Shown here: piece after piece, positions 4,793-59,263 of the stretch
Layout of the letters: each line of letters begins with the position of its first letter
Numbering within the stretch: position 1 is the stretch's first letter
Source: a virus
Lineage: Duplodnaviria; Caudoviricetes
DNA: 61,111 nucleotides
IMG/VR virus record: IMGVR_UViG_3300011436_000001
Span: 1 to 61,111 of that record
Reading direction: 5' to 3' (one strand)
Made by a program: the position numbers and the translations under genes
Notes under the pieces: generated by a model
The model's database searches: none
What the model saw: only the letters and a program-made list of their open reading frames with translations
Told to the model about the DNA's origin: nothing

Positions 4793-4980
4793 TTTAATCG
4801 TTCCTGTATCACAACAGTAAGCTGCGTTATAGCTTTTGTGTACTCAACAATGCAGTTGTGCATTTTTTCGGCCAGCGACACCAATCGGAGCAATAAGTAA
4901 ACTGCGACAATCCAGCCAAATGCCAATGGGCCGTACACAGACACCAGACTTTTAACATCAAAGCCTTCCATTTTTCCCAC
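4789..4980 (-). CDS. Small single-TM protein, holin-like
   Basis: One TM helix plus a short coiled coil at the start of the lysis cassette. Confidence 0.55.
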   Translation of the reverse strand: MGKMEGFDVKSLVSVYGPLAFGWIVAVYLLLRLVSLAEKMHNCIVEYTKAITQLTVVIQERLK

Positions 4981-6212: not shown

Positions 6213-6218
6213 ATTTCG

Positions 6219-7436: not shown

Positions 7437-7448
7437 GAAGTGTACTCG

Positions 7449-8660
7449 CTAAAATGTGACAACGACGCGCGTTCGGAAATTTCCGGCGGTTAGGGTAGCT
7501 TGGTTGCCCGTCGTGGGGTTCACGCCATCGTACACGCCTACGCGCGTGAAGTTGACATTCACCGAATTGACGCCACACCAGTAATGCCCACCACTGCCCG
7601 CCGTGCCCGCCAAATCGTAGGACATCTGATCAACGGCAAATTCCTGGCCCGGCTGCCAACCCTGTTGTGAATTAACGCAGCGATAGAAAAGCTGCATCGT
7701 CGTCGGGTTTACGCCCAGCCCGTGTGAATGTACGTCAGTCGTATTGCCCGCCGCGACGGCCTTCGGATCGGTTTTCCATTTGCGCGTACTGGTTTCCCAA
7801 ACCGACGAAACGCACATCACCTCGACTACACTGAAGCCCGGCTCGTTTTGTATTTTGACGAAGGAACCGCCGCCGCTGAAAAGCCGCCCGGACGCTGTGA
7901 TCGTCAGGATCGCGGCTGAAGTCGTTGCGCGATTGATCATGCGGAAATTGATGCCGTCAGATACCGCAGGAAGCGAAACGGCGCAGCCCGCCGCGTTGGT
8001 GTAGCTAAAGGTCTTGCCGGTATCCGAAACTGCTGGCGAATGCGTCGTGCCGGTCTGAAGGCTCAAAGCACTTGCGCCACCAGCGCCACCGGCCAACGGC
8101 GTGCCATCGCCACGCTGGTAGATCGCGACAAACCAGGAGCCGGAGCCCAGCGAAATCGCCAACAGGCTATCGTTGGCTGCCGTCGTGATGCTCGCTGCTG
8201 TTGGCAAGATCAGCGACACGGCATTGTGGGTGATGGTCAGCGCGCCCGCGAAGCGCAGGATGCGCCAGACGCCCGCCGTTGCCGTGCCGAAGCTGGTGAT
8301 GCCGGTGACGCCAGTCACGCGCACAAAGTTTGTGGTCTGCGCGCCGATGTCCGTTGTCCCGCCAGACGCCAGATCGGCAAACGCATCTAGCTCGATGGCC
8401 CCGGTCAGCGATCCGCCGGTCAGCGCCAGCAATGCCAGATTGGTGCTGTCGAGCACGCCAACAGTGACCCATGACGTGTTCGCGCCGTTGCGGATTTTGA
8501 GAAGCCCGGCAGCGGTGTCAGCCCAAAACATGTACGCATACGTCGTGGTCGGAGCGGTGCCGCCGCTGTTGTGCGTCGCAATGGCACCCGCCAGATTATT
8601 AAGGTCGGTGCGAACAGTCGCGCCAGAAGCGTTGCCAATATTGTAATCGTGCTGGGTCAT
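7449..8660 (-). CDS. Tail fibre / receptor-binding protein, paralog 1
   Basis: MTQHDYNIGN...WADT..GLLKIRN N-terminal domain; C-terminal HGLG motif. Confidence 0.8.
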   Translation of the reverse strand: MTQHDYNIGNASGATVRTDLNNLAGAIATHNSGGTAPTTTYAYMFWADTAAGLLKIRNGANTSWVTVGVLDSTNLALLALTGGSLTGAIELDAFADLASGGTTDIGAQTTNFVRVTGVTGITSFGTATAGVWRILRFAGALTITHNAVSLILPTAASITTAANDSLLAISLGSGSWFVAIYQRGDGTPLAGGAGGASALSLQTGTTHSPAVSDTGKTFSYTNAAGCAVSLPAVSDGINFRMINRATTSAAILTITASGRLFSGGGSFVKIQNEPGFSVVEVMCVSSVWETSTRKWKTDPKAVAAGNTTDVHSHGLGVNPTTMQLFYRCVNSQQGWQPGQEFAVDQMSYDLAGTAGSGGHYWCGVNSVNVNFTRVGVYDGVNPTTGNQATLTAGNFRTRVVVTF

Positions 8661-22492: not shown

Positions 22493-22553
22493 TGACCACC
22501 TGATGATTGAGTACAATGCCCTTCTAGCAATTGCTTGGCCCAACTTGAAACAA

Positions 22554-27891: not shown

Positions 27892-28299
27892 TTAAGTCGG
27901 GTCGCGGACTTCCAAATTAAAGGCGGAAGTTTGGGCCGTGTTGCCCGCCGTCACCGCCTGCGACGTGACCGTGGTCACCAATAGCAGAGCGGACCGGGTA
28001 TTTGAAACAATGGCCAGATGGTTGGCGTTCGCCGTCTCCGAAAGCGTGATGGAGGTTTGCGCGGCGACGTTCAACCGACGGCCCGAGGTAAGGCCGGTCG
28101 TGGTGTTGTACGTCGCGCCATTGTTGGAAAGGGTCAAGGTCTTTTCACCCAGCGCCACGCCCGAGGTGTTCTGCGTCACCGTCAAGACGGCTTCGGCGTA
28201 GTTGATCGGGGCCACACGGCACAGCGTCATGCGAATGCCGAAGTTGGCGATATGCAGCAGATGATCCTCATACGCCGAGGTTACGATTGTCTTTGTCAT
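27892..28299 (-). CDS. Putative virion structural protein
   Basis: Thr-rich, ends ..Q.VTAGNT....F.LE.RDP; coupled to the repeat protein. Confidence 0.6.
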   Translation of the reverse strand: MTKTIVTSAYEDHLLHIANFGIRMTLCRVAPINYAEAVLTVTQNTSGVALGEKTLTLSNNGATYNTTTGLTSGRRLNVAAQTSITLSETANANHLAIVSNTRSALLLVTTVTSQAVTAGNTAQTSAFNLEVRDPT

Positions 28300-31200
28300 C
28301 AGTCCTCACTCCCAACTTCGAAAATGCGGGGTCCATCGAAAACGTAAACCCGGCTCTTGCCACCTTCCACCATCGCCACGCGCGGCCCGCCGAGGATGAC
28401 GATGGCAGAACTTTCGGCCCCCACCATGATAGTGTTTGGCCCGCCTGAAACAACAATCGTGGCGCGGGGCAGTTGTACGCCGCCTTGCCCTGGAAACAGT
28501 GAGCCGGTCAAACCATCCAGGAATACAAGCTGGGTCAGGTCGTGCGCGGTGATCGCGTGCGCCTGGGTGATGAAGTCGTTGCCGAGTTCTACGGTCTGCG
28601 TCAGATCGTCGGCGATCAAAATTGAAAGCTGCGCCAGCGTCGCGTTGTCGAGGATGACCAATTGCGTTAGATCGGCGGCGGACAGCGTGTGAAGCTGCGC
28701 CAGCGTCACCGGGTCTAGGAAAACAAGCTGCACTAGATCGGACGCGGTGATCGCGTGCGTCTGTGTGATCGTATCGCTATCTAGGAAAACCAGTTGCGTT
28801 AGATCGGCGCTCGACAGGATATGCGCTTGCGTGATCGGTGCGTTGTCGAGGAAGACCTGCTGCACCAAATCGTTGCTGGTCAGCAATTGGTTCTGTGAAA
28901 TCGTTGCCGGGTCGAGGACCACAAGCTGGGTCAGGTCCCCCGTGATCAGCGAAACCGTGCCGCCGGTATCAACGTTGTCAAGGAAGACCAGTTGGATCAG
29001 ATCAGCAGACGTGAGTACATGCGTCTGGGTCAGCGTGTCATTATCGAGGACAACAATCTGCACCAGATCGAATGCAGTAAGTACATGGGTCTGCGCGAAC
29101 GTCGCGCCATCCAAAACAACAAGCTGCACCAAGCCCGCGCTGGTCAGCACATGATTTTGCAGCAGCGTGTCGTTATCGAGGAAGACCAGTTGCACAATAT
29201 CTGCGCTGGTAATGGTGTGCGTTTGCGCCAGCGGGATTGGCGCGCTGGTCATCCAGCTAGTGGTATCATCCAACGATCCGGTCAGCGTCATGTCGCCGCC
29301 GGTTCCCAAATTGGTCGGGAAGGCGGAAGCCGGTGTCTTCATGTACAACAGTGGCGAACTGCCGGTTGGGTTTTGCCCCGTGCTTCCTAAATCAGCGGGC
29401 GCAAAAGTCATCAGGTTGAAGAATTTGGCTTTCTCGCTATCTAGATCAAAATCGAAGAAGCTGTTGTTAAACCAGACTTCGGCCACGCCAGCATCCAACT
29501 TCTGAATGAAGTCGCCCTGCCGCGATCCGAAGTTGGTAGTGCTGTTGTACACAATATCAAAAGCGGCGAATGCATCGTTAATGAAAAGCGGCTGAGATAC
29601 ACCGTTTATTGCCACTCGGCATTTCTTCAAGCCAGCGGCAAAATTAACATCCCAAGAAATCGCAATGTGTACAAGACCGTCGTTCGGGTACAATCGGCGA
29701 CCGGCGCTAGAAACATTGAAATCGAGCGTAGCGGTAGCGGAGAAGTCCTGACAGAAGAATGCAATTCGGTCACTGGTTGCGATGTCAACGATGTAATTGC
29801 CGTTGGTCAGCAACCGGCGGCGCTCACCGACATGCAATGATCCAAGCGCCAACAAACAACAGAGCGTGCCTTGTCGTTCAGTGGCAGTGGCAAAACCGCC
29901 GGTCTTCACCAGATAATCATTGACGCCATCCAGCGTCACCGTCGCCAGCGACCGGGCGAAGCCAAGCCCATCGTTCACGATCATGCTGGCAGACGTAAGT
30001 ACATGATTTTGCGTGATGGCATCGTTATCGAGGAAGACGGTTTGCACCAAATCATTGCTAGGCAAGATGTGGTTCTGCGCCATCGTCACGTTGTCGAGAA
30101 CAACAGCATGCACCAGATCGGCAACAACGATGGTGCCCCCGCCCGCGATATCGACCGTGACTTCATCGAGAAAGACTAGCTGGATCAGATCGGCGGACGT
30201 GAGTACATGGGTCTGGGTTAGGATTGGCCCGCCACCACAAAGCGGATCGGACGTGGCGTCAGTCAGCACCCCATGAACAATGAAGCCGCCGCCGGTTCCC
30301 AAATTATTCCCGTAAGTCGCCGCCGGGCCTTTCAAGAAAATGGCTGGCGATGTGCCTGTTGGCAATTCCCCGTTCGGCCCTAAATCAATAGGGCGGCCCA
30401 CCGCATCCGAAAACTTCCGGCAATTCGTCGCTACATCAAGATCAAAATAATCGGTTGTTGAAAACCAGAAGTCCGAAGTGTCACCGGCGTATTTTTGCAC
30501 ACCACTATCTAATGCGTACACACCTAAATCCGTCTCGCCGGAATAGTTCACATCGAATGCAACGCTAGTATCGGTCACCAAATCAATGGCAACCGGCACC
30601 CCATCTATCGCGACGTGCTTCTTCTTGTTGCCCGCCGAAAAATTGGCGTCCCACGAAATAAGAACATTGTGGTATCGCCCATCGTTCTTGTAACCCGTAG
30701 CCGAACGGAACTGCAAAAACTCACCACCGGTCCCCCAAACCGTTATAGTGATCCGCCGACTACTATCAATCTGCGCAACATAAACTGCGGAAGCACCTCG
30801 CATTATATGGTTGCCTGGGCCACCCGCACCCTTCACTAAAATAGACAACGTACCGCGTGGCCCATCCACAACGCCTGTGAGCGGCGCACCGCTGCTTAGC
30901 CAATCATTGGTGCCATCGAAGGTGACGCCTTCGGTGCAATATTCCAACGCCACAATCTGTGTCAGATCGGCGGACGTGAGTACATGCGCTTGCGTGATGG
31001 CATCGTTGTCTAACACCACCAACTGCACAAGATCGGATGAGGCCAAAAGCTGGTTCTGCGTTATGGTGTCGTTATCGAGTACAACTAGCTGCACCAGATC
31101 GGCGGACGTGAGTACATGCGTTTGCGCAAACGTCACATTGTCGAGCGTGACGAGTTGCGTTAGATCATTGGCCAGCAAGTTAAGGATCAGTTGTAACGTC

Positions 31201-32492
31201 GCATTGTCGAGCGTGACAACCTGCACCAGCCCAGCCGATATAAGTACATGGGTCTGGGTCAGCGTGTCATTATCGAGGACAACTAGCTGCGTCAGACTGG
31301 CGCTGGTAATAACGTGGTTTTGCGTGATGGTGCCGTTGTCGAGTACAACTGTCTGCACCAAATCCGCAGGCGTGATGCTGGTAACTACGGCTCCTTCTTC
31401 AAGATCGATGACTAGGATGGCTGTCCAGTTAGTAGTGGAAACAGTAGCGCCCTCAGCATCGTGCTCAAGCAGCCAAGTCTTGTTACCAGTGGTCGGGCTT
31501 TCGCGCTTAATACCAAAGAACGCGGATTGATCGCTGCTCTCATTGTACTCTTCTATTGTCTCGGTGATCGCACCATTTGGCCCATCAAAATTCATCAAAT
31601 TGCTAAGAGTAGTACTGGCCATCGTGCCAATCCAACTACCGAAAGCAACATGGTTGCGCTGAACGGCCACATTGTAGACCAGCGACAATTTGGTAACGAG
31701 CGCGGTTGTGGTCGTGTCGCTATCATCTTCCGCGTAGTCGTACGCGCTAAACTTATCCAAATCGAGCGCCACGATGCCACGATATTGTTGCCGAACAGTT
31801 GTGGCGTTATCTTGCGAGGCATAATCTACCGAGTAATCGTGCGTCCCGCTTTCCCCCTCAAAACCCCGCATAACGGGATAGGTGCGCCAGCCGGTTGCAT
31901 CTTGCAATGTGTACGCACCACCACTAACCAACACGGCGTCACGAAACATTCTAAATGCAATATCGCCAGACGTTCCCGCTTGTCCTCTTGCAGCATAGAA
32001 AATCGCAAAGTTGCCGTTGAACGTTCCCTCTAAGGATTGACTTTCTAAAGGTGTGGAAGAGGTGCGCGTAATTTCATCAGAGGCAAAAATGCTTTGATCA
32101 TCGCCGCCTTTTTTAATTCCAAAGATGTACGCAAAAGCAATGCCAACGGTAGAACCAGGAGCTTCGACCCAATATTGAAGAGCGATACTCTGCGACCCCG
32201 GAGAGGAACCGTACGTGACTTCAACGACACTCGCATACCCAATCCTGTCTGTAGCGTCCTGCGGTTCAAAATTAACGCTGTACAACGTGGTAGAGCTAGT
32301 GGTGTTGAAAAGTCGCGCGAGTGCATCGGCGGTCGTAATGCTGTGGTCTAGTACAAACGCGAAAAAATAAAACCAAGTCTCATTATTACCCGGCGTATGG
32401 GTGAGCGTCACCTTTGTCGCGCCACCAACCGTGTTAGTGGTTGCGGTAGAGCGGCCCGTACTTTCTGCGTACTCATTGGACCAAGCGGCCAT
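28299..32492 (-). CDS. Large putative virion fibre/adhesin with about 22 copies of a 22-aa repeat and two LamG/lectin-like inserts
   Basis: Repeat consensus ITQTHVLTSADLVQLVVLDNDT; inserts begin FDGTNDWL and LDGVNDYL and end NLGTGG. Confidence 0.75.
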   Translation of the reverse strand: MAAWSNEYAESTGRSTATTNTVGGATKVTLTHTPGNNETWFYFFAFVLDHSITTADALARLFNTTSSTTLYSVNFEPQDATDRIGYASVVEVTYGSSPGSQSIALQYWVEAPGSTVGIAFAYIFGIKKGGDDQSIFASDEITRTSSTPLESQSLEGTFNGNFAIFYAARGQAGTSGDIAFRMFRDAVLVSGGAYTLQDATGWRTYPVMRGFEGESGTHDYSVDYASQDNATTVRQQYRGIVALDLDKFSAYDYAEDDSDTTTTALVTKLSLVYNVAVQRNHVAFGSWIGTMASTTLSNLMNFDGPNGAITETIEEYNESSDQSAFFGIKRESPTTGNKTWLLEHDAEGATVSTTNWTAILVIDLEEGAVVTSITPADLVQTVVLDNGTITQNHVITSASLTQLVVLDNDTLTQTHVLISAGLVQVVTLDNATLQLILNLLANDLTQLVTLDNVTFAQTHVLTSADLVQLVVLDNDTITQNQLLASSDLVQLVVLDNDAITQAHVLTSADLTQIVALEYCTEGVTFDGTNDWLSSGAPLTGVVDGPRGTLSILVKGAGGPGNHIMRGASAVYVAQIDSSRRITITVWGTGGEFLQFRSATGYKNDGRYHNVLISWDANFSAGNKKKHVAIDGVPVAIDLVTDTSVAFDVNYSGETDLGVYALDSGVQKYAGDTSDFWFSTTDYFDLDVATNCRKFSDAVGRPIDLGPNGELPTGTSPAIFLKGPAATYGNNLGTGGGFIVHGVLTDATSDPLCGGGPILTQTHVLTSADLIQLVFLDEVTVDIAGGGTIVVADLVHAVVLDNVTMAQNHILPSNDLVQTVFLDNDAITQNHVLTSASMIVNDGLGFARSLATVTLDGVNDYLVKTGGFATATERQGTLCCLLALGSLHVGERRRLLTNGNYIVDIATSDRIAFFCQDFSATATLDFNVSSAGRRLYPNDGLVHIAISWDVNFAAGLKKCRVAINGVSQPLFINDAFAAFDIVYNSTTNFGSRQGDFIQKLDAGVAEVWFNNSFFDFDLDSEKAKFFNLMTFAPADLGSTGQNPTGSSPLLYMKTPASAFPTNLGTGGDMTLTGSLDDTTSWMTSAPIPLAQTHTITSADIVQLVFLDNDTLLQNHVLTSAGLVQLVVLDGATFAQTHVLTAFDLVQIVVLDNDTLTQTHVLTSADLIQLVFLDNVDTGGTVSLITGDLTQLVVLDPATISQNQLLTSNDLVQQVFLDNAPITQAHILSSADLTQLVFLDSDTITQTHAITASDLVQLVFLDPVTLAQLHTLSAADLTQLVILDNATLAQLSILIADDLTQTVELGNDFITQAHAITAHDLTQLVFLDGLTGSLFPGQGGVQLPRATIVVSGGPNTIMVGAESSAIVILGGPRVAMVEGGKSRVYVFDGPRIFEVGSED

Positions 32493-33264: not shown

Positions 33265-33603
33265 CTAGAGATTGACCAGCACAAACTCCCGCTGCACCAA
33301 CATTGCCCGGATCATCTCATAATCGTGATGCCGCTCCCAACCATCGAGCGCCACGAAACGCGACCGCCGCGTGACGCCGTAAAGCCGATGCGCGGCATGG
33401 ATGTATAAGTACACACGGTCATCATCTGTACGCGTTTTGGCCCAGGCTTCAGCGGTATCGCGATTAGGCGCTGCGACCCAGACCACCTTGGGCTCAATTA
33501 TGTCAGTCAGCCGCAAGCCGGGCTCGCCTAGCGGACTATCCAAGCGGCGGATGCGCATCAGCGTCGAGCGATTGATTTTATTTTTGCGGAAGATCGGCTT
33601 CAT
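33265..33603 (-). CDS. Hypothetical protein, paralog family B
   Basis: C-terminal alpha/beta domain shared with 33600..33935 and 34763..35185. Confidence 0.6.
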   Translation of the reverse strand: MKPIFRKNKINRSTLMRIRRLDSPLGEPGLRLTDIIEPKVVWVAAPNRDTAEAWAKTRTDDDRVYLYIHAAHRLYGVTRRSRFVALDGWERHHDYEMIRAMLVQREFVLVNL

Positions 33604-33935
33604 ATGTTCATGCAGACCGCGCGAAGCTCGACCAGTCGCGCGCGGATCGCCGCGAACGATGGGCTCTTCTCGTAATTCTCCACAGAAACGAAAAAGATCG
33701 GCGGCTTTGCGTTTTCCAATTGATCCACATTTCGCAGATGCGCGTACAATCTTCCGCGCACCTTGTTCTTCTTAACCCACGATGCCGCATCCGCCGGATA
33801 GCGAGCGAGTACAAAAATCAGCCGTGGGGTTTGGAAATCATGGATGACCGCTTCTATCACGTCATCAATAGTCGCGTGCGGGAGATACACCCGCTTCGCC
33901 CGTAGCTTCCTGCGCTGTTCGGCCATTGTCATCAT
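33600..33935 (-). CDS. Hypothetical protein, paralog family B
   Basis: Shared C-terminal domain; ATGA coupling. Confidence 0.6.
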   Translation of the reverse strand: MMTMAEQRRKLRAKRVYLPHATIDDVIEAVIHDFQTPRLIFVLARYPADAASWVKKNKVRGRLYAHLRNVDQLENAKPPIFFVSVENYEKSPSFAAIRARLVELRAVCMNI

Positions 33936-34204
33936 GGCTGTGCGTTGTTGGCCGTCGCGTTGCGAAGCAATTCCTGCAACAAGCTGATCTGCCGCTGCTG
34001 ATCGTATAGCTGCGCGTGCATCTTCGACACGATGTAGGTCGCGAAGATCGCAGGCGGCAGAATAAGCCAGAGCACATCGAAATCAGCCCGGCCCTTAGAC
34101 AGCCATGACATCAGAATGGCAAACGTGCCAATCCAGCCGATGCTCATCAGCACCAGCGCCATCGTCGCGGGGCCGGGCAATCTCGATTTGCGGACAGCGA
34201 TCAT
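33932..34204 (-). CDS. Two-TM membrane protein
   Basis: Two hydrophobic helices; ATGA coupling. Confidence 0.6.
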   Translation of the reverse strand: MIAVRKSRLPGPATMALVLMSIGWIGTFAILMSWLSKGRADFDVLWLILPPAIFATYIVSKMHAQLYDQQRQISLLQELLRNATANNAQP

Positions 34205-34602
34205 GAATAGTCGCCGCGCTCCATCGCCTTGTGTACTTCGGCGACGCGGCCCTGGTTCACATCGAACAGCGCCGCGATCCGCTTCTGCTGAAAATGACGC
34301 GCCAACAGATAGCGGATCACCTTCTTATCCGCAGCCGTCAGCGGATGGGATTTCTGCTCGCTGTATTCGTGACTGTACTTCACCTTCTTGTCCATTTCCT
34401 TCAACCTCTTTGCTGCAAACTTCTTCCATCGTTTGTTGACGCGATGCTGACGACGCTCCGATGCGGCTCGCCGTCTTTTCACATCCCCACGATACACAGC
34501 GGACATGATTGCCGCCCGAAATTCTTCATCGCTGGTATTGGCGTCACGCTCGATTTCTGCCGCTGTCGGACGCCGTGGCCGCTGCCGCCTGTTGGTTTTC
34601 AT
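34201..34602 (-). CDS. HTH DNA-binding protein
   Basis: C-terminal LT..D...IR.LL....QQKRIAALFDVNQGRVAEV helix-turn-helix. Confidence 0.65.
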   Translation of the reverse strand: MKTNRRQRPRRPTAAEIERDANTSDEEFRAAIMSAVYRGDVKRRRAASERRQHRVNKRWKKFAAKRLKEMDKKVKYSHEYSEQKSHPLTAADKKVIRYLLARHFQQKRIAALFDVNQGRVAEVHKAMERGDYS

Positions 34603-34762
34603 CTTTAGTCGTACTCCTCGAATGATCTATTGTGAGCCAACCGCAGCATCTCAATCCACTTCGCCAAAAACAGATCGTTGATCGGCACGGTTTTCAAACA
34701 AGTGGCAAGCGTGTCCCTAACCCGCATCGCCGACCAAGCGTTATTGTCGGCGGCGTGGGGCT

Positions 34763-35185
34763 TCACGGCACGATGTTGATCGCGCGCAACTCCATCAACG
34801 CCTCTTTGATCGCCACCGCGTCGGCGCGCCGTTCAGCGTTCGGGAACATGATGAAGCGGATGCCCGACGGCAGCGACTTCAAGAAATCCGCGTTCGGCGC
34901 GTAGAGCCAGCGCTTCTCATCGAGGCGATGGATCATGCGGAAGGCTAGCACGTCCTGCCCACCATTGGCGATGACGTACACCGGCCCCTCGATATCGCGG
35001 AAATTCTCCTCCCGGAAATAAGGGTCTTCATAGACCTTATCTTCGCGGTGCTGATGGCGCACTTTGCGCCAGTGCCGCAGCTTGTCGGCGAACAGCTTCC
35101 GGTCTTCCGGTCGTGTGATCAAATGGGAAATCCGCCGGAAGTCCTGAAGGAATTGGCTCATCAGGTATTCTTTATGTGCAGCCAT
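34763..35185 (-). CDS. Hypothetical protein, paralog family B
   Basis: Shared C-terminal domain. Confidence 0.6.
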   Translation of the reverse strand: MAAHKEYLMSQFLQDFRRISHLITRPEDRKLFADKLRHWRKVRHQHREDKVYEDPYFREENFRDIEGPVYVIANGGQDVLAFRMIHRLDEKRWLYAPNADFLKSLPSGIRFIMFPNAERRADAVAIKEALMELRAINIVP

Positions 35186-35249: not shown

Positions 35250-35600
35250 CTAGCGTTTGGTCCCGTAAACCACTTTGATGGACGGCCCACCGGCATCTTG
35301 CGTGATACTTTCACAGCTATCGAGCACCCGCGCACGGGTATCGACAAACTTGGAGGCTTTCTCCACTACCAAAATCTGCGCGATGATGATCTCGGCTGCA
35401 AAGCAATAGCTGTGCAAGATATTGTCATCCAGATCAGGGTCAGCTTGCGCAAATTTCGCCAGCATCTCATTGAGGTGTTGTTTCTGCGCATCATGGTTCT
35501 TGATCGCGGTACGCAGGTCCGCCACAAGGCCATCGTAGACGCTGTTGAAAAACTGGTAATCGGTGCTTTCTTTCGGCGGCGGTGTGTACCACGCGGTCAT
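35250..35600 (-). CDS. Small protein, EDNxL motif family
   Basis: PDLDDNILHSYC. Confidence 0.55.
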   Translation of the reverse strand: MTAWYTPPPKESTDYQFFNSVYDGLVADLRTAIKNHDAQKQHLNEMLAKFAQADPDLDDNILHSYCFAAEIIIAQILVVEKASKFVDTRARVLDSCESITQDAGGPSIKVVYGTKR

Positions 35601-35776
35601 AGACGATCATCCGGCATCATAGGCGCAGCCATATCAATAAGGTCTTCCATCGTGGCGCACCAAAACTCCAACGTTTCGTCGGACAGGCCATAGTCGGATT
35701 GTGCCGCGAAGCTTAGCAAAAACATTTTCCAGTACGACGGGCAGATCGTGTGAAATCCGAAAGAGTGCGGCGTCAT
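35597..35776 (-). CDS. Small protein, EDNxL motif family
   Basis: YGLSDETLEFWCATME; start reassigned to the ATGA overlap. Confidence 0.6.
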   Translation of the reverse strand: MTPHSFGFHTICPSYWKMFLLSFAAQSDYGLSDETLEFWCATMEDLIDMAAPMMPDDRL

Positions 35777-36111: not shown

Positions 36112-36492
36112 TCAAAAGGGCCAATACGGATAACTTATGTACACTAGCAACACACCAAGCCACCAGACCGCCAGATACGACAGTGTGAATTTCAGATCGT
36201 GCATGAAATCTCTGAAGTGCAGACGCCGGATCATAGCGTACTCATTGTGGGCAAGTGCCATCGCCGCGATGTAGGCAGGCAACTGTGTATCATCAAGCGG
36301 CCCTGGATGGACAGCAAAGTGCGACACGTTCCCGTTGCCCACGATGAAAACAAAATCGCCGCCGAAAGCCGGGGCTTCTGACACCGACAAGATGACGCGT
36401 CGCCAGCGCCCCCGGAGCTTCACATAGGACAGGGCGACAGCGATCAGCCCGCCGAACATCGCCCCGGTCAGCAATGGCCACGGCCAGTCCAT
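36112..36492 (-). CDS. Membrane protein, EDNxL motif family
   Basis: Two TM segments flanking GPLDDTQLPAYI. Confidence 0.55.
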   Translation of the reverse strand: MDWPWPLLTGAMFGGLIAVALSYVKLRGRWRRVILSVSEAPAFGGDFVFIVGNGNVSHFAVHPGPLDDTQLPAYIAAMALAHNEYAMIRRLHFRDFMHDLKFTLSYLAVWWLGVLLVYISYPYWPF

Positions 36493-40049: not shown

Positions 40050-40292
40050 TCATTTTCCACCTCCATGCCAATAGGAAACTCTTTCAGAAAACGGCGTGAA
40101 GTCAATAGCGTTCTTAGCATCTGTCCAAGCAACGTAGCTGGTCAACAACGCCCAACGAATTAACGCGTTGTCGTCTAGCTCCTGATCGCGGGCAATAGCA
40201 ATCAAAGCCGTCACCGCACTAGCGCGTGCGTCCTGCCAATCGGTTTCTGGATCATCGGTTTCCTCGGCCATCGTCTTAGTAAGGTCCCGCAT
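40050..40292 (-). CDS. Small protein, EDNxL motif family
   Basis: QELDDNALIRW; start moved downstream of the tRNA-like gene. Confidence 0.55.
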   Translation of the reverse strand: MRDLTKTMAEETDDPETDWQDARASAVTALIAIARDQELDDNALIRWALLTSYVAWTDAKNAIDFTPFSERVSYWHGGGK

Positions 40293-40330
40293 CTTACGCC
40301 AAGCAGTTTTCAGGTCTTGATCTTTCGTAT

Positions 40331-40402
40331 TGGTACGCTGCCGGGGGATCGAACCCCGTGTGCTGGGATTTGAAGTTCCCGACAGGGACCGGCCCGCAGC
40401 GC
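40331..40402 (-). tRNA. Atypical tRNA-like gene with UCA (opal-reading) anticodon
   Basis: 7-bp acceptor GCGCUGC/GCAGCGU, A73-CCA, canonical T arm CGGGG-UUCGAUC-CCCCG, CUUCAAA loop, minimal D arm. Confidence 0.7.
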
Positions 40403-40735
40403 TCATGCTTTTGCAGTCTCTTCGTATTGCGTGATGAAGGTGTGGATCAAAACCTGCAACGCGCCATCCATGTCCAACAAATCATCGAGCTTGTCGTCGC
40501 GGATTTCAACGTTGCGCAATTCCTTGAAGGCGTCGGTATCGTGAATGTCGATGGTCTGCACAGCCTTGCATTTAATGATGACCTGCTCGCCGCCATAAGC
40601 CCCCACAATCTCCGAAGCGCGTTCGCGCGCGTGCGCCAGCGTCATTGGCTCCGGCCCCTCGCTAGACACATCAAGTGTACCATCCAAATTGATGTTGGCC
40701 AGCAAGTAGAAGCTGTCAGTCGGCTTTATGTCCAT
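40403..40735 (-). CDS. Hypothetical acidic protein
   Basis: 110-aa ORF. Confidence 0.55.
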   Translation of the reverse strand: MDIKPTDSFYLLANINLDGTLDVSSEGPEPMTLAHARERASEIVGAYGGEQVIIKCKAVQTIDIHDTDAFKELRNVEIRDDKLDDLLDMDGALQVLIHTFITQYEETAKA

Positions 40736-40997: not shown

Positions 40998-42422
40998 TTA
41001 GTTTCGCGGCTTGTTGTACGCTTCAGACACCGCGATGTACTTCAACGCCTGTTCGCTGAAGCCGTCGATATGCGTCCACTTGCCATAGCCGATGCCGTTC
41101 TTGTAGTTGGCGACGTTGATCAGGTAATTGCGCTTGCCGAACGCATCGGCCTCGGACGGCGCACCACGCCCGCCGAAATCGCAATCCTGTTCATCGGTCA
41201 CGACGATCAGCCGATCCACATCGCTGGTGTGCGCCTTCACATAATCGCACATCTGCTTGAGGAAGATGCCGCCGCCGCCCAGCTTGTCACCAGCCCTCTT
41301 GATCTCCTCGACCAAGGCCATGCCGCCACGCGTCGAAAGCTCCTCGGTCTTGTGAATACGAGTACCATCACTGCCCGCCGTGGCAAACACGGTACAGTCT
41401 TCCGACATACCCCGACAGATCGCCGCCAGCGCCGCAGCGCCGTCCATACGATCAAGCGCGCTCTTTGCCGACAGACGCCCGCCCATCGAGCCCGACACAT
41501 CGATCACGATGACCGTGTGCCCTGGCATCTTCGGCATCTGCTTCATCGTCGCCTGCATCGCCTTGTCCAACGCATCTTCGAACATCGGCGCAGCACGCGC
41601 CGCCGTGATGAAGCGGAACGGCAGTACACGATCCGCGCCATTGAGCCGGGCCAGGATCGCTTCCTTGACCAGCTTGCGCGGCACGCCCGCCGCTTCCATG
41701 CCCGACAGATTGCGCAGCAACGCCATGTAGCCCAGCTTCTCTTCAGCCATCAGGCGTTCGAAGACCTTCCGCTTATCCTCGCCGCTCGACAGGTTGACTT
41801 CCCAAGTATCCGGGCTTTCCAGTTTGCCGTCGATGAGCTTCTGCCAAACCCTCTGCTGCGCCGTGTCCTTCGGCTTGGCGTGGCACATGAAAAGCACGTC
41901 GCGCAACTTCACAGCCGCGTCGGTGTTGTACTTGCCAAGCTGGTAGGCATCGAACTTGCAGAACGCCGCTGCCAAACCCTTCTTCATCTGCGCCGACAAC
42001 GGGCGCTTGCCGTCCTTCCAATACAGGGCGACAAACTCCGACAACTCATCGGCGCGCTGGATCGTGTCGCGGATCGCAGTGCCAACGATCTCGCCCTGGC
42101 CACGCGCCACCAGTTCCTTCAACAGCAACAGTGGGACGTGGCGCAGATTGTACGCAGACCGCGCTTCGACGGCGAGGTTGGCCAGCGTCGAAACCGGCAC
42201 AGCCTTGGAAGCTGTAGCGATACGCTTGGCGACACTTTCGCCGCCCTCGTAGAACTCGTTTTCCCAAAGCAGACACGACAGGACCGACCGGCGCAGTTGC
42301 GCCTCGGCATCCGGCGCGGACACAGCAACAGCGCCACCGTGCGTCACGTCGTAGTTTGCGCCCTGCCGACGGACCGGCGTACGCTTCACAGCCTTTTTGA
42401 TTTTCGGATTTTTGCGTGCCAT
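40998..42422 (-). CDS. rsr: Ro60 / Rsr ribonucleoprotein (TROVE + vWA domains)
   Basis: LRRSVLSCLLWE..FYE.G, IQRADEL.EF, FDAYQL.KY, TWEV.LS, ALLRNL, LPFRF..A, MIDAS DVSGS, VTDEQ and IDGFSE motifs. Confidence 0.93.
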   Translation of the reverse strand: MARKNPKIKKAVKRTPVRRQGANYDVTHGGAVAVSAPDAEAQLRRSVLSCLLWENEFYEGGESVAKRIATASKAVPVSTLANLAVEARSAYNLRHVPLLLLKELVARGQGEIVGTAIRDTIQRADELSEFVALYWKDGKRPLSAQMKKGLAAAFCKFDAYQLGKYNTDAAVKLRDVLFMCHAKPKDTAQQRVWQKLIDGKLESPDTWEVNLSSGEDKRKVFERLMAEEKLGYMALLRNLSGMEAAGVPRKLVKEAILARLNGADRVLPFRFITAARAAPMFEDALDKAMQATMKQMPKMPGHTVIVIDVSGSMGGRLSAKSALDRMDGAAALAAICRGMSEDCTVFATAGSDGTRIHKTEELSTRGGMALVEEIKRAGDKLGGGGIFLKQMCDYVKAHTSDVDRLIVVTDEQDCDFGGRGAPSEADAFGKRNYLINVANYKNGIGYGKWTHIDGFSEQALKYIAVSEAYNKPRN

Positions 42423-42448
42423 GACTTCCCTCTCTTGCTCCTGGTTCT

Positions 42449-42458
42449 ATTATACAAA
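42449..42458 (-). promoter_or_regulatory. TTGTATAAT promoter-like motif upstream of Ro60
   Basis: Same motif as at 35218, 37438, 49712 and 59212; flanked by CTGGTT/AACCAG inverted repeat. Confidence 0.55.
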
Positions 42459-42476
42459 CCAGACGGGAAGTCAGAA

Positions 42477-42610
42477 CCGGGGATCAAGCGGCAACGGCGT
42501 TCTTGACGTGCTCTACCGCTGAGCTACAGCCCCATAGTGGTGGAGCCGGTGGGATTTGAACCCACGACCACGCGCTTACAAAGCGAAGTATCCGCCACCT
42601 ACGCCACCGA
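42477..42610 (-). ncRNA. Y RNA 1 (YrlA-like) containing a circularly permuted tRNA
   Basis: Terminal Ro-binding-type stem (UCGGUGGCGUAG / UUGAUCCCCGG) enclosing anticodon arm, T arm, closed acceptor stem with CCA, then D arm; adjacent to rsr. Confidence 0.85.
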
Positions 42611-42622
42611 CAACAAACTAAC

Positions 42623-42780: not shown

Positions 42781-43038
42781 TTACGCCTGTTCGATGCGCA
42801 GGTCAAGAGGGTTGTGCGGCTCTTCCGGCAATTCGTTTTCGGAAGTGAAGCGGGAGACACACAGCGCGTGAACGGCCAGCGCGTTCGGCATCATCAACAT
42901 CCACATCGACAACTGGTTGTCCTCAAGATCGAAGGTCAGCAGATTTTCGAGGAAGTCATGCCACAGCCGCAGCACATCTGGAATTTCAACGATGGGGTTA
43001 TGCGTCAGCGGCACGTTGTACACCGCACCCTGATCCAC
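42781..43038 (-). CDS. Small protein, EDNxL motif family
   Basis: FDLEDNQLSMW. Confidence 0.6.
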   Translation of the reverse strand: MDQGAVYNVPLTHNPIVEIPDVLRLWHDFLENLLTFDLEDNQLSMWMLMMPNALAVHALCVSRFTSENELPEEPHNPLDLRIEQA

Positions 43039-49747: not shown

Positions 49748-49975
49748 TTAGGGAACGTGCCAAGGAGCCGCGTTTCGCCGATGACGGTCCCGCAAGCTGC
49801 TTATCGAATTGAATGCCAGCCTCGCCCTGCGGAAAACGCTGATCCAGCTTTCCAAGTTGCTGTCGATGATCGTCGCGTGCTCGACATTGCCGTACGTATT
49901 GCGTATCCACTGCATCATATCGAACGGCTTAGGGTTCTGCGCTTCATACATCGCCATCGTCTTGCTCATTGTCAT
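49748..49975 (-). CDS. Small protein, EDNxL motif family
   Basis: ATIIDSNLESWI. Confidence 0.6.
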   Translation of the reverse strand: MTMSKTMAMYEAQNPKPFDMMQWIRNTYGNVEHATIIDSNLESWISVFRRARLAFNSISSLRDRHRRNAAPWHVP

Positions 49976-50129
49976 TCGCGGTCATCATCTTGTCGCGCAA
50001 CTTCAAGTCCATCAGCCACCAGTACATCTCTTCCATCCAAAATTCCAACGCGCTATCGTGCAGCATTGCGCCCCGCACCCTATCAAGCGTGGCGGCGTTC
50101 GGGAAAAGATGGCGCGTGCTACTGGCCAT
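49944..50129 (-). CDS. Small protein, EDNxL motif family
   Basis: AMLHDSALEFWM. Confidence 0.6.
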   Translation of the reverse strand: MASSTRHLFPNAATLDRVRGAMLHDSALEFWMEEMYWWLMDLKLRDKMMTANDNEQDDGDV

Positions 50130-50133
50130 ATCG

Positions 50134-50295
50134 CTAATCTAAGCTGTCCCTACCGTTGTACACTTCCTGCCACAATTGCCACAGATCAAACTCCTCGATC
50201 CAGTATCGCAAATTGTTGTCGCCGATAACCGTCGATTTTTCTGCGCAGCTATGAATTGCGTCATCCACCATCGGGCTGCACAAATCCTCTTCCAT
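50134..50295 (-). CDS. Small protein, EDNxL motif family (53 aa, not in ORF track)
   Basis: MEEDL...TVIGDNNLRYWIEEF. Confidence 0.55.
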   Translation of the reverse strand: MEEDLCSPMVDDAIHSCAEKSTVIGDNNLRYWIEEFDLWQLWQEVYNGRDSLD

Positions 50296-55932: not shown

Positions 55933-56499
<567 letters not shown>

Positions 56500-56567
56500 C
56501 TCCACACGTTTGAAAAGCTCGTTTCTAACCTTATCATACAATCCTGACTTTAGGACAGTGACAACCG

Positions 56568-57008
56568 TCACATACCGGTCAGCCTTGCTTCAAGCGGAAC
56601 CTGCGGCGGATCGATGCCACGATCTTCGTTGTTTCGCTGGGTCCGCCGATGCGGATCATCTCGACGCACTCCCGCGCGGTAGCCTCCCGCGCCTTCCTTA
56701 TTGCCGCGTTCAGATGGCGACGCTGCCCTGGTGAAAACCAAACCGTCTTGCGGATCGCTGGCTTTCGCATTTTCGTACTCCTGCTGTTTAATCACAAACT
56801 CTAAAAGTCCCGAAAGCAGACCAAGCTCGTTGTCAGTCCAATGTTCGGGCGCGGGTGGCATACCAATTACCAGAACGTTAACCGTCGGCGATGAGCGCCC
56901 GGCAGCCCATTCACAAAACCACTCGACGTACTCATTCTGCTTTCTCTCGCGGCCCGGCAACCGCATCGACATGATGATATCAGGAAAAGATGTTGTCGCC
57001 ATGATCAT
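56568..57008 (-). CDS. Protein with EDNxL-like motif; 3' part overlaps the 56579..56770 ORF
   Basis: EHWTDNELGLL. Confidence 0.45.
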   Translation of the reverse strand: MIMATTSFPDIIMSMRLPGRERKQNEYVEWFCEWAAGRSSPTVNVLVIGMPPAPEHWTDNELGLLSGLLEFVIKQQEYENAKASDPQDGLVFTRAASPSERGNKEGAGGYRAGVRRDDPHRRTQRNNEDRGIDPPQVPLEARLTGM

Positions 57009-57187
57009 GCCTTTCTGCGAACCACTGTTTGAAGTTGGTAGTGCAGTCGCACATAATTTCCAACGCACCATTCCATCCCCACCACGCGCAACAGCGCGAC
57101 TACGTCCTCGATGGTAATGTGTACATGGAAACGATGCGCGGCTTCGGCCCCACATCCATCCCCTTCCCCATCTATGTGTTTTCGCAT
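57005..57187 (-). CDS. Small protein, weak EDNxL motif match
   Basis: ITIEDVVALL; lies within the family cluster. Confidence 0.45.
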   Translation of the reverse strand: MRKHIDGEGDGCGAEAAHRFHVHITIEDVVALLRVVGMEWCVGNYVRLHYQLQTVVRRKA

Positions 57188-57208
57188 GTTATGCCGATAT
57201 ATGCTGGA

Positions 57209-57490
57209 TTAGTCTTTCCATGATCCGCTGGTCTGCACACGGGGCAGCGTTGCAAGCTGACTGTCCGCAACGGTTCCTGGCCCTAATGGAAAAGCTTGGT
57301 TATATGCCGGGTACTTATTCCTGCCGGGAAATGTCCTGTCGTATAGATCGAGAAGTGCCGTCATCGTGCTGCACCATCTCGATAGGTCCACATCATCGAG
57401 CTTGCTTTCCAGCATCAACTCATACCCATAAAGCCCGATGAGCCAGCGCTGCGGATCGTGTGGTTTCACGGGCTCATAAAATCGCTTCAT
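57209..57490 (-). CDS. Small protein, EDNxL motif family
   Basis: SKLDDVDLSRWCSTM. Confidence 0.6.
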   Translation of the reverse strand: MKRFYEPVKPHDPQRWLIGLYGYELMLESKLDDVDLSRWCSTMTALLDLYDRTFPGRNKYPAYNQAFPLGPGTVADSQLATLPRVQTSGSWKD

Positions 57491-57500
57491 GTTGCTCTTC

Positions 57501-57686
57501 TCAGCCAATCCGGTTTCTCCTAATTCCGACGACAAAATCCCTGCTGTACACTACCAGGATTGCTTCCATCGTGGCGCACCATTCCCCCAAAGCACGATCA
57601 TCAAGAGGAAACCCCATCAAATGATTGTATCCGACGATAGACGCGAACCAGCGGGACGCTTCAGTATCTCGCACTAAACCAGCCAA
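57501..57686 (-). CDS. Small protein, EDNxL motif family
   Basis: FPLDDRALGEWCATME. Confidence 0.6.
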   Translation of the reverse strand: MAGLVRDTEASRWFASIVGYNHLMGFPLDDRALGEWCATMEAILVVYSRDFVVGIRRNRIG

Positions 57687-57892
57687 TCTTTCTTCTCCCG
57701 TGGCGCATTACCGCCGGAAAGCTGCCGCAAGGTAAATCCAAACTCTTTGGCACGGGTTCCCGTTGTGTGCGCCCATCTTCGCAATATGGTGATCGTGTTG
57801 TCGTCAACCTCACCCTCGCTCAATCTGGTGAAGCTGAAAGTCCGCCGCCACTTGCGGTAATCCTCTTCAACGCTGTCTGCCTGTTTCTTCAT
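57674..57892 (-). CDS. Small protein, EDNxL motif family
   Basis: GEVDDNTITIL. Confidence 0.55.
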   Translation of the reverse strand: MKKQADSVEEDYRKWRRTFSFTRLSEGEVDDNTITILRRWAHTTGTRAKEFGFTLRQLSGGNAPREKKDWLV

Positions 57893-58071
57893 GACCTGAT
57901 GTACTTGTAGCGGTAAATCTGTGTCCCCTCCATCGCGTCTCTCGCATGCGTCGGGATCGGCATCAATTCAACAACCCAAAACAGTAAGGTGTTGTCGCAT
58001 AGCTCCGTTTCGCGAAAACCTTTCAGTATCAACGTGTACTCGTTCCAATCGTCATTCGGTCGGGGCTTCAT
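57889..58071 (-). CDS. Small protein, EDNxL motif family
   Basis: TELCDNTLLFWV. Confidence 0.6.
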   Translation of the reverse strand: MKPRPNDDWNEYTLILKGFRETELCDNTLLFWVVELMPIPTHARDAMEGTQIYRYKYIRS

Positions 58072-58241
58072 CCGGGGCTTTTCTTCGCTCTCGCTGCGAA
58101 TGCCATATCCTCACATCGCAAAACTGCCGTGATCCATAATTCTAACACGTTGTCCTCAAGATCGATGGTGCCTGACTGCCGCCATGAACTGAAATCCAGC
58201 GTGTACTTGTCTACCCCAACCTCTTGCACGCGCGGGTTCAC
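58068..58241 (-). CDS. Small protein, EDNxL motif family (57 aa, not in ORF track)
   Basis: GTG start in a GTGA overlap; LDFSSWRQSGTIDLEDNVLELWITAV. Confidence 0.65.
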   Translation of the reverse strand: MNPRVQEVGVDKYTLDFSSWRQSGTIDLEDNVLELWITAVLRCEDMAFAARAKKSPG

Positions 58242-58429
58242 TTTTTCAGCACTGTAGATACAATGGCGTACGCAACCTGCTTACGCAGTTGATAAACCGC
58301 GTTGATCCAGATTTCCAATTCGCTATCGGACAGCGGAACAGCGCCTTCGCAGTGCCACGCGCTGAAATCGACCTTCGGCGTAAACATGGGTGCGATACGC
58401 GGGTTCATCGATCTGTCTCTGATTTCCAA
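58238..58429 (-). CDS. Small protein, EDNxL motif family
   Basis: VDFSAWHCEGAVPLSDSELEIWINAV. Confidence 0.6.
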   Translation of the reverse strand: MEIRDRSMNPRIAPMFTPKVDFSAWHCEGAVPLSDSELEIWINAVYQLRKQVAYAIVSTVLKK

Positions 58430-58632
58430 ACATCATGGAACCGCAACGCCCGCACCATATTGTGTACAACCCTGCACCAGAACACCAACTCATTATCCTC
58501 TATGGCCGCGCGGTCCAGCCATTTATTCAAAGTCGCCAAGCTCTGATCGCCTCCAAAACTACCAGCCTCGGCCAACAGGCGCACCAGATCGTCTCTATTC
58601 TCGCGTGGGCCGGGACGTGTACGCGGGTTCAT
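58405..58632 (-). CDS. Small protein, EDNxL motif family
   Basis: AAIEDNELVFWC. Confidence 0.6.
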   Translation of the reverse strand: MNPRTRPGPRENRDDLVRLLAEAGSFGGDQSLATLNKWLDRAAIEDNELVFWCRVVHNMVRALRFHDVWKSETDR

Positions 58633-58847
58633 CGGTCATCCCAATGCTTGCCAACGCGGCGCTCGATAGCCGCTGGCAACAGCTTCACCATCATGCACCA
58701 GCTTTCCAATTCGCCGTCCTCCAACGGCTTTCCCGTTAACCAATGATGCGCGGCCCGCAGACTAAGCGAAATGTCAATGGCTTCGTACATGATGCGCGCC
58801 AGCGCTCCCTCGACCTTGCAGACACCTTCCTTCTTTGTTGGCTTCAT
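58629..58847 (-). CDS. Small protein, EDNxL motif family
   Basis: KPLEDGELESWC. Confidence 0.6.
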   Translation of the reverse strand: MKPTKKEGVCKVEGALARIMYEAIDISLSLRAAHHWLTGKPLEDGELESWCMMVKLLPAAIERRVGKHWDDR

Positions 58848-59026
58848 TGCCTTACCACAACCACCCGGCTCCGCCCTTCGTATTCGAGCTTGTCATTATC
58901 TTCGAGCACAAAGAAAATCTCGTTGATCCACAGCCGCAGCCAGCGATCCTCTATCGGGCGATCCTTCGCACCATCGCTAAGGAAGTACACTACATCGCTA
59001 TCATTGAATTTAACGCGCGGCTTCAT
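58844..59026 (-). CDS. Small protein, EDNxL motif family
   Basis: RPIEDRWLRLWI. Confidence 0.6.
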   Translation of the reverse strand: MKPRVKFNDSDVVYFLSDGAKDRPIEDRWLRLWINEIFFVLEDNDKLEYEGRSRVVVVRQ

Positions 59027-59205
59027 GATCGTGACGTGGCCTCGATATTGAGTATCTGCAACGCCCGCAGCATCGGCAGCAAATTATCTAAGCTGGCATC
59101 CTCAATGTCCCGGCTCGACAAGATTTTCCATATTGCCTGCGCCGTTGGGTGTGCCAACGGTTCCGGTCGGGCAATGGTGATGACAATAGTGCCTGTTTGC
59201 CACAT
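59023..59205 (-). CDS. Small protein, EDNxL motif family (first gene of the operon)
   Basis: RDIEDASLDNLL; ATG lies 6 nt after TATAAT. Confidence 0.6.
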   Translation of the reverse strand: MWQTGTIVITIARPEPLAHPTAQAIWKILSSRDIEDASLDNLLPMLRALQILNIEATSRS

Positions 59206-59211
59206 ACCTCG

Positions 59212-59221
59212 ATTATACAAT
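59212..59221 (-). promoter_or_regulatory. ATTGTATAAT promoter-like motif heading the EDNxL operon
   Basis: Sits inside the palindrome CTCGATT-GTAT-AATCGAG, just downstream of a terminator. Confidence 0.6.
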
Positions 59222-59228
59222 CGAGCAC

Positions 59229-59263
59229 AAAAAGGGGGCCGGGCAGACTTGCCACCCGGCCCC
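59229..59263 (-). terminator. Rho-independent terminator
   Basis: GGGGCCGGG...CCCGGCCCC followed by CUUUUU. Confidence 0.65.

Follow-up and report, generated by a model that had tools for sequence, protein, structure and literature searches.

The window analysed in this study, the whole of IMG/VR virus record IMGVR_UViG_3300011436_000001 (61,111 nt, estimated to be 69% complete), is a contig of an uncultured siphovirus-like phage and encodes a paralogous family of very small proteins that share the signature [ILVM].D..L..W. Fifteen open reading frames (ORFs), approximately 13% of those in the window, carry this signature; most encode 53-93 amino acids (aa) and one encodes 118 aa, with eight located in a main array at 57209-59026 and three in a second array (Table 1). 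The family itself is undescribed, while its kind, the viral multigene family of small accessory proteins, is known; what is unusual is how many members a phage of such size carries and that hardly anything apart from one helix start has been retained. An earlier note on this DNA, made by inspection of the sequence, had described about 11 consecutive array genes with a short shared motif as the core of a family of about 22. All eleven motif strings quoted there were found in consecutive minus-strand ORFs from 59205 to 56568, but both counts proved too high: 8 of the 11 array genes contain the full signature, with one further marginal member (57674), and the family as a whole comprises 15 strict and two marginal members, the remainder being indistinguishable from chance by profile.

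Enrichment, paralogy and coding of the signature carriers

Almost all coding is carried by the minus strand, where a greedy set of 117 ORFs covers 94% of the window. Among these ORFs, the form [ILV][EDSCT]D..[LI]..W was found 11 times, compared to 0.16 +/- 0.39 matches in 1000 within-protein residue shuffles (maximum 2), and inside the array it was found 8 times where 0.01 matches were expected. The signature [ILVM].D..L..W was found 15 times (0.36 +/- 0.58 in the shuffles, maximum 3), with all 15 matches in minus-strand frames, while the three plus-strand frames together gave 1. As an outside control, six-frame ORFs of at least 35 aa were counted in 32 related-phage loci (487,562 nt) reached via the capsid protein, Ro60 and a PHROG-18063-like protein; the signature was present 16 times in 87,073 residues of the window and 9 times in 638,663 residues of the loci (Poisson P = 4e-13), a density 13-fold higher in the window than in the 488 kb of related phage DNA. 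The earlier note had allowed that a generic helix N-cap background might account for the motif. However, the generic form [ILV][STDE]D..L was enriched only 2.2-4.2-fold, compared to 24-28-fold for the same form plus W, and this background therefore does not suffice.

Profile searches gave a consistent picture of membership. In a leave-one-out test, 14 of the 15 members ranked first, above 5850 decoys, and the 40050 protein was the sole strict-motif ORF to be missed (rank 20, E = 5.4). A profile built from the eight array members retrieved 35597, 42781, 49944 and 40050 before all 2340 decoys. Two marginal candidates, 57674 (E = 0.15) and 37457 (E = 0.3), scored just above the decoys, and the profile gave no support to ORFs 59023, 56568, 35250, 40726 and 38000. 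Two ORFs flanking member 35597, at 36112-36492 (-) and 35250-35600 (-), have Y in place of W (LDDTQLPAY and LDDNILHSY) followed by the same hydrophobic stripe; they lack profile support and from their sequences are possible degenerate members.

Paralogy between neighbours, which had been suggested by eye, was borne out by BLASTP for 57209 and 57501 (E = 7e-10), 58068 and 58238 (E = 3e-9), and 58405 and 58629 (E = 2e-5), as was a link from the array to the distant gene 35597 (E = 1e-3 to 57209 and 3e-3 to 57501). Protein identity is 30-45% between neighbouring paralogs and 13-32% to the first sequence of the family alignment (A1). Because the nearest paralogs are adjacent genes, the array grew by tandem duplication. 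Outside the signature, resemblance is quickly lost: without the nine residues, N-terminal profiles recovered 1 of the 15 members and C-terminal profiles recovered none of the 15. The flanks are thus unrecognisable across the family, in agreement with the earlier description of them as mostly unrelated, and the logic of a constant element with a variable remainder is real.

Conservation acts at the protein level, since codons vary freely and DNA repeats in the array are no longer than 30 nt. The synonymous variation reported earlier is evident at the invariant D, for which 8 members use GAC and 7 use GAT, and in the information content of 0.01 bit at the third base of the first motif codon. With 14 structural genes (each 200 aa or longer) as its training set, a codon model favoured the annotated frame in all 19 small ORFs and in 19 of 20 held-out controls (1384-32890), the exception being 2279-2611; the annotated frame is also preferred for the first ORF of the array (59023-59205), which the profile does not support as a member. 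Family members on other contigs have independent gene calls. In orthologs from near-identical phages, 120 of 128 motif-helix positions are identical compared to 427 of 511 in the rest of the protein (Fisher P = 0.003), and the D, L and W of the signature are kept in 8 of 8 ortholog comparisons, the more diverged ones included. Together with the shuffle and related-phage controls, these results contradict the proposal that no protein family exists and that the pattern arose by chance, from a DNA-level repeat or in non-coding ORFs. The general scarcity of Shine-Dalgarno sequences speaks for this proposal, which is hardly credible.

The array is tightly packed. The ATGA/GTGA coupling noted previously was found at seven junctions, all of them 4-nt overlaps with no clear Shine-Dalgarno sequence, and a strong terminator-like hairpin does precede the array. 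The promoter motif of the earlier note fared less well, as it amounts to a TATAAT hexamer without a -35 element, and the promoter scan omitted this hexamer. Lying immediately behind the terminator-like hairpin, the hexamer stops 6 nt short of the ATG at 59205 (59203-59217); if it is used, the mRNA of the first array gene would be leaderless or nearly so. Six consecutive array genes start with M-[KN]-P-[RT], a start in which the ATGA overlap dictates the K or N of residue 2. Net charge among the members ranges from -11 to +4, with 6 of 15 strongly acidic (-6 to -11) and one clearly basic.

Contigs from four other runs, aligned to the array at 80% likeness, indicate how its gene content changes. 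In runs X9 and X10, a joint connecting 58230 to 58398 skips 167 nt, and 10 letters fit either side; this 10-nt microhomology is the shared gene start TGAACCCGCG. The skipped length exactly equals the spacing of the two start codons, 58241 and 58408, and these strains therefore lack precisely the gene 58238-58408, with the frames of the array preserved. Since the variants lack one unit at a 10-nt repeat, the array gains or loses whole genes by recombination at gene starts. The X9 and X10 contigs also differ from the window at nearby positions, identifying them as diverged strains. Evidence for a second joint (57427 to 57617, skipping 189 nt) came from one run, where a side of the joint measured 47 nt, and is too weak for any interpretation. 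Two loose-end consensus strings, translated by hand, read L-E-D-N-V-L-H-L-W for a copy of the 58068 gene and P-L-D-D-D-A-L-G for a copy of the 57501 gene, and point to retention of the signature in diverged copies of both genes. In a contig 99% identical to the window, 23 of the 31 differences fall at 57501-57747.

Table 1. Coordinates of family members, candidate members and associated elements in the window (all on the minus strand except the gene-start repeat, which has no assigned strand)
Feature	Positions	Length (aa)	Signature or sequence	Remarks
Intrinsic-terminator-like hairpin	59235..59263		12 pairs, 10 G-C, then T run	Ends the upstream unit just before the array
-10-like hexamer	59212..59217		TATAAT	6 nt upstream of ATG 59205; function putative
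First array ORF	59023..59205	60	IEDASLDNL	Degenerate, without W; membership unsupported (hidden Markov model, HMM)
Member	58844..59026	60	IEDRWLRLW	Leave-one-out rank 1, E = 0.046; ATGA overlaps at both ends
Member	58629..58847	72	LEDGELESW	Leave-one-out rank 1
Member	58405..58632	75	IEDNELVFW	Three-helix model; ortholog P0008 89% identical
Member	58238..58408	56	LSDSELEIW	Unit missing in contigs of two other runs
Member	58068..58241	57	LEDNVLELW	Motif, BLASTP, leave-one-out
Member	57889..58071	60	LCDNTLLFW	Motif, leave-one-out
Marginal member	57674..57892	72	VDDNTITIL	HMM E = 0.15, narrowly ahead of all 5850 decoys
Member	57501..57686	61 (57 from GTG 57674)	LDDRALGEWCATME	Helical-hairpin model
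Member	57209..57490	93	LDDVDLSRW	BLASTP E = 7e-10 to 57501
Last ORF counted in the earlier note	56568..57008	146 (from ATG 57008)	WTDNELGLL	Membership unsupported (HMM)
Member	50134..50295	53	IGDNNLRYW	First of the second array; leave-one-out rank 1, E = 0.098
Member	49944..50129	61	LHDSALEFW	Motif, profile, leave-one-out
Member	49748..49975	75	IIDSNLESW	Leave-one-out; ortholog P0016
Member	42781..43038	85	LEDNQLSMW	Just upstream of tRNA-like gene and Ro60; ortholog P0005
Motif carrier	40050..40406	118	LDDNALIRW	BLASTP E = 0.012 to 57889
Member	35597..35776	59 (from ATG 35776)	LSDETLEFWCATME	Called ortholog P0002 has the same start
Member	34605..34766	53	INDLFLAKW	Leave-one-out rank 1
Gene-start DNA repeat	58228..58240		Reverse complement of TGAACCCGCG...	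Other copies 58395-58407, 59013-59025; repeat family D4, spacing 167

Predicted structure of the signature and searches for relatives

In AlphaFold2 models based on the family alignment, the last long helix starts at the signature. For the 61-aa member (57501), the prediction was a helical hairpin made up of helices 8-24 and 30-59 (mean predicted local distance difference test score, pLDDT, 73.6; predicted template modelling score, pTM, 0.39), and for the 75-aa member (58405) three helices at 9-22, 29-39 and 46-74 (pLDDT 80, pTM 0.58), with D46 beginning the last; in both models the last helix begins at the invariant D, and pLDDT block means are highest (89-92) over the motif and just after it. 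When the members are aligned on D (position 0), hydrophobic residues are present in 100% of members at -2, +3 (L), +6 (W), +7 and +13, and in 93% at +10, while a weaker hydrophobic stripe lies upstream at -17 (often W), -10 and -7. The signature lies 22-76 residues into the protein. The models argue against the shared acidic motif of the earlier note being an isolated linear peptide. We conclude with moderate confidence from the models that the conserved unit is Phi-x-D-x-x-L-x-x-W-Phi-x-x-Phi-x-x-Phi, where Phi is a hydrophobic residue, and in which an N-cap bearing a hydrophobic staple leads into the first four turns of an amphipathic helix; that the members are two- or three-helix units; and that the hydrophobic face of the signature helix packs on a preceding helix with its own aromatic and hydrophobic stripe. 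The heptad-like stripe that includes L(+3) and W(+6) resembles a fold core or helix-packing face. A homodimer prediction for the 61-aa member scored 0.02 against a mark of 0.42, which is evidence neither way.

Searches of Pfam, the PHROGs, 1.84 billion representative sequences, PDB sequences and known folds yielded no convincing match to a described family, in agreement with the earlier statement. The Pfam and PHROG scans covered ten array proteins, leaving out the seven members outside the array; none had a significant match in Pfam-A (best E = 0.09) or a convincing one in the PHROGs (best E = 0.011, covering 35 residues of a profile with 352 positions). One lead was Hha/YmoA (PF05321), a family of all-helical H-NS modulators of approximately 70 aa with a helix start, L-S-D-N-E-L-x-x-aromatic, resembling the signature. 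It was rejected: the profile had no match in the six frames of the window at E <= 10, while an E. coli control was matched, and the ten array proteins had no Pfam match to it at E <= 1. From the 1.84 billion representatives, the family profile retrieved only proteins of the window itself, orthologs nearly identical to them and a pair of repeat proteins judged to be spurious; a word-indexed search likewise found no relatives beyond near-identical phages, a related-locus search with the 57209 protein found none, and the best match of the profile among PDB sequences had E = 0.49. Structure searches used the 75-aa model, for which Foldseek returned no match in PDB or BFVD at E <= 0.001 and VIA-align wide gave a best Z of 5.7, under the level that the tool regards as informative for helical proteins. 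ESM Atlas gave no usable feature match, and its structural neighbours were uninformative.

It is important to consider how sensitive these searches were. The leave-one-out scores of true paralogs are 11-21 bits, and equally diverged members elsewhere would therefore be invisible in billion-sequence searches. Four records with a 38-58% identical capsid protein yielded no profile match at E <= 1 (0 of 4), while the same search on the window itself returned 15 matches as a positive control; because these records are 9-59% complete, absence from them is weak evidence. The motif expression, run over three of these four records, had two matches, neither in a family-like context. The family has thus been detected so far only in this phage and its near-identical relatives, and the large searches are too insensitive to establish that it is restricted to them. 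One possible, unproven distant member was identified from its sequence in a locus of another phage lineage (L018:15596-15814, +), where a 72-aa ORF contains LEDLKLRQW (LEDLKLRQWCVEQV) with the upstream W present. This ORF had an HMM E of 0.11 among 7298 ORFs and an hhalign probability of 27.5% against the family; its two homologs retain L..W, but not always D. In the literature, a search found no mention of the string 'DxxLxxW', and searches on paralogous small phage proteins and gene-family expansion found, within their own range, nothing matching.

Possible roles of the family

There are several potential explanations for a family that combines a fixed helix start with divergent remainders. 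We give even odds to the reading, drawn from the models, that the signature maintains a minimal helical scaffold while surfaces diversify, as expected of accessory proteins in host conflict. The signature would be kept since the minimal fold depends on it, while exposed residues, N-terminal parts and tails would have diversified, so that members, whose net charge varies widely, may engage different targets; they would likely be non-essential accessory proteins for host takeover or counter-defence. The array region also holds Ro60, tRNA genes and a polynucleotide kinase/phosphatase-like gene. Small phage ORFs without relatives, usually singletons, have been the source of many anti-defence and host-takeover functions. 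In this case, approximately 15 natural variants of one minimal scaffold in one genome separate what is constant (D, L, W and the stripe) from what can change.

Several points weigh against this scaffold reading. D, L and W are invariant while other positions of the stripe vary (I, L, V, M, C, A, F), and this invariance exceeds the usual demands of a helix core and would suit a specific contact, although it is partly circular, as the expression defining the members requires D, L and W. The AlphaFold2 models were built from shallow alignments (15 and 22 rows), with pTM values of 0.39 and 0.58. In addition, the unit-deletion joint comes from contigs of diverged strains aligned at 80% likeness, and X9 and X10 could both stem from a single sampling campaign. 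Finally, the case for counter-defence is drawn solely from genomic position.

A specific contact is what would be expected if the members dock on a common partner, with the exposed conserved helix face (D, L, W and the stripe) inserting into one host or phage hub and the variable parts tuning affinity, timing or a second contact. We regard this as unlikely, though it accounts for the invariance of D, L and W amid flanks that are unrecognisable. The two-helix members of 53-61 aa are also small for a stable monomer, and translational coupling would lead to co-expression. The T-even internal proteins (IPI, IPII, IPIII and the variable IP locus) are small, diverse proteins with one short shared element, as here, and are linked to the arms race with host defences (PMC3012670), providing a phage precedent for such an element on diverse proteins. 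However, the motif is modelled as an integral helix packing on the N-terminal helix, a second domain does not fit in the proteins, and the circularity of the member-defining expression lowers the value of the invariance on this side as well.

A more elaborate form of docking, close to the adaptor or decoy library of the earlier note, seems to us rather doubtful: one invariant helix face would dock all members on the same hub, the hypervariable remainder would supply second specificities, and gene gain or loss at the 10-nt repeat would reshuffle the library. If true, it would amount to an undescribed kind of compact modular phage system for counter-defence or host takeover. The constant element with a variable remainder stands, but the motif is integral to the last helix in the AlphaFold2 models. 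The analogy to F-box adaptors that accompanied this idea fails on architecture, as the proteins, mostly 53-75 aa long, are too short for a separate cargo domain. While F-box proteins also have a constant element in a large diversified family, they consist of a domain of approximately 50 aa plus a separate substrate-binding domain, compared to members here that amount to roughly the conserved helix and one or two partner helices; no significant Pfam match was found among the ten array proteins.

It is improbable that the members are virion-internal or ejected proteins in which the shared element serves as an address or as an [LI]-x-D processing site for prohead loading. The site of the T4 prohead protease is [LI]-x-E, which [ILVM]-x-D resembles, and the window encodes a 572-aa protein with a head-maturation-protease match; the common start M-[KN]-P-[RT] of six consecutive genes could be read in the same way. 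T-even internal proteins are described as highly diverse defence proteins in which only the targeting sequence is conserved (PMC3012670). Set against this, the strict motif occurs in small ORFs only, the major capsid protein has no propeptide, its profile match running from end to end, the conserved pattern continues as an amphipathic helix, and the ATGA overlap explains the K or N at residue 2. The shared element of the T4 internal proteins is N-terminal and is removed by the prohead protease, while here it lies well inside the protein and begins the last helix. T-even internal proteins are also packaged in virions, which nothing suggests for the present family, and no sequence similarity between the two is apparent.

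Equally remote, if not slightly more so, is the possibility that the members are tri-helical micro-regulators resembling helix-turn-helix (HTH) proteins, or mimics of sigma-factor region 4, acting on DNA or RNA polymerase. By our own count, sigma region 4, LuxR-type or other HTH domains account for approximately 19 of the 50 listed weak structural matches, at Z values of 3.8-5.5; the best of them is the EsrB C-terminal domain (Z = 5.5, root-mean-square deviation 1.3 over 52 residues). All matches, however, have Z <= 5.7, under the level that the tool calls uninformative for helical bundles, and the ten array proteins had no HTH or sigma match in Pfam at E <= 1. Furthermore, 6 of the 15 members are strongly acidic and one is clearly basic, and some are modelled with two helices only.

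Viral multigene families and genomic accordions, such as the families of poxviruses and African swine fever virus, are likewise same-strand tandem arrays of accessory genes with copy number driven by recombination. In the present family, the nearest paralogs are adjacent on the same strand and copy number varies by one 167-nt unit in the diverged strains of runs X9 and X10, as in tandem viral multigene families. However, copies in an accordion are recent and near-identical, while this family is old and its genes are much smaller; recent amplification of the accordion type was rejected because neighbours are 30-45% identical and DNA repeats do not exceed 30 nt. Phage gene amplification is reported for T4 tifA (10.1101/2022.04.14.488369) and as a SegB-driven process (PMC13096335).

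A phage of approximately 60-90 kb appears to spend about 13% of the genes in the window on one effector scaffold or one shared docking helix. Early host-takeover operons of tiny ORFs in lytic phages include SPO1 gp37-60, T7 class I and T5 pre-early genes, which like the array are packed, co-transcribed ORFs of 50-100 aa without database relatives. Genes of those operons are mostly unrelated to each other, whereas the array genes are paralogs, and early timing of the array would be conjectural, as it lies behind a putative sugar-modification gene cluster. Knowledge of the host might allow a new target or hub to be found through the family.

Genome surroundings

The DNA was found in freshwater-sediment and groundwater metagenomes, and no RNA dataset was among the sequencing runs listed as containing it. 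Neither the array nor 20 kb of structural genes had a DNA match among 50,697 phage records, and the capsid protein had at most 33.5% identity to cultured phages among the tblastn matches listed, which is why no host was called. PHROG matches in the window include a major head protein, a head-maturation protease, a tape-measure protein, a J-like tail fibre and a Ro60-like RNA-binding protein (40998-42614, -; phrog_850, E = 6e-43), and the polynucleotide kinase/phosphatase-like gene matches phrog_505 (E = 3e-38). A 1397-aa ORF in the head-gene region (28299-32492, -) had zero Pfam or PHROG matches. The only Rfam matches were two tRNA genes, with nothing in the array. One of them, a weak tRNA-Thr call (30.4 bits, compared to a gathering score of 29), lies 116 nt upstream of the Ro60-like gene. 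YrlA RNAs, the partners of bacterial Ro60, contain a tRNA-like module, and by analogy this call could represent a Y-RNA-like gene instead of a tRNA.

Directly downstream of the array, a 212-aa ORF (55933-56571, -) has a signal-peptide-like N-terminus, MRKTLLLSTFLVPVALAIGAANAMA, followed by a run of approximately 55 aspartates and a repeat tail rich in G, A, E and T; it has no Pfam match. On the other side, a metagenome contig (L012) with 99.95% identity runs 6.5 kb past the window end, and the ORF cluster upstream of the array there (L012:1-6575) is sugar-modification-like by eye, its translations resembling a dehydrogenase, aminotransferase, acetyltransferase, glycosyltransferase, methyltransferase and epimerase. 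Within the structural module, a 1011-aa protein (19508-22543, -) has glycosyltransferase, methyltransferase and glycosyltransferase PHROG matches. Together, this protein and the upstream cluster suggest, from their sequences, virion or DNA glycosylation.

The window contains other paralogs as well. A second small family lies within 33265-35185 (-) and comprises ORFs 33265, 33600 and 34763 (BLASTP E = 3e-7 and 6e-5). Three tandem paralogous genes of approximately 405 aa each, at 4980-8660 (-), have near-identical N-termini (MSQHDYSLAN, MAQHDYSIAN and MTQHDYNIGN); the N-terminus of the one that was scanned matches tail and tail-fibre PHROGs, making a triplet of receptor-binding proteins possible.

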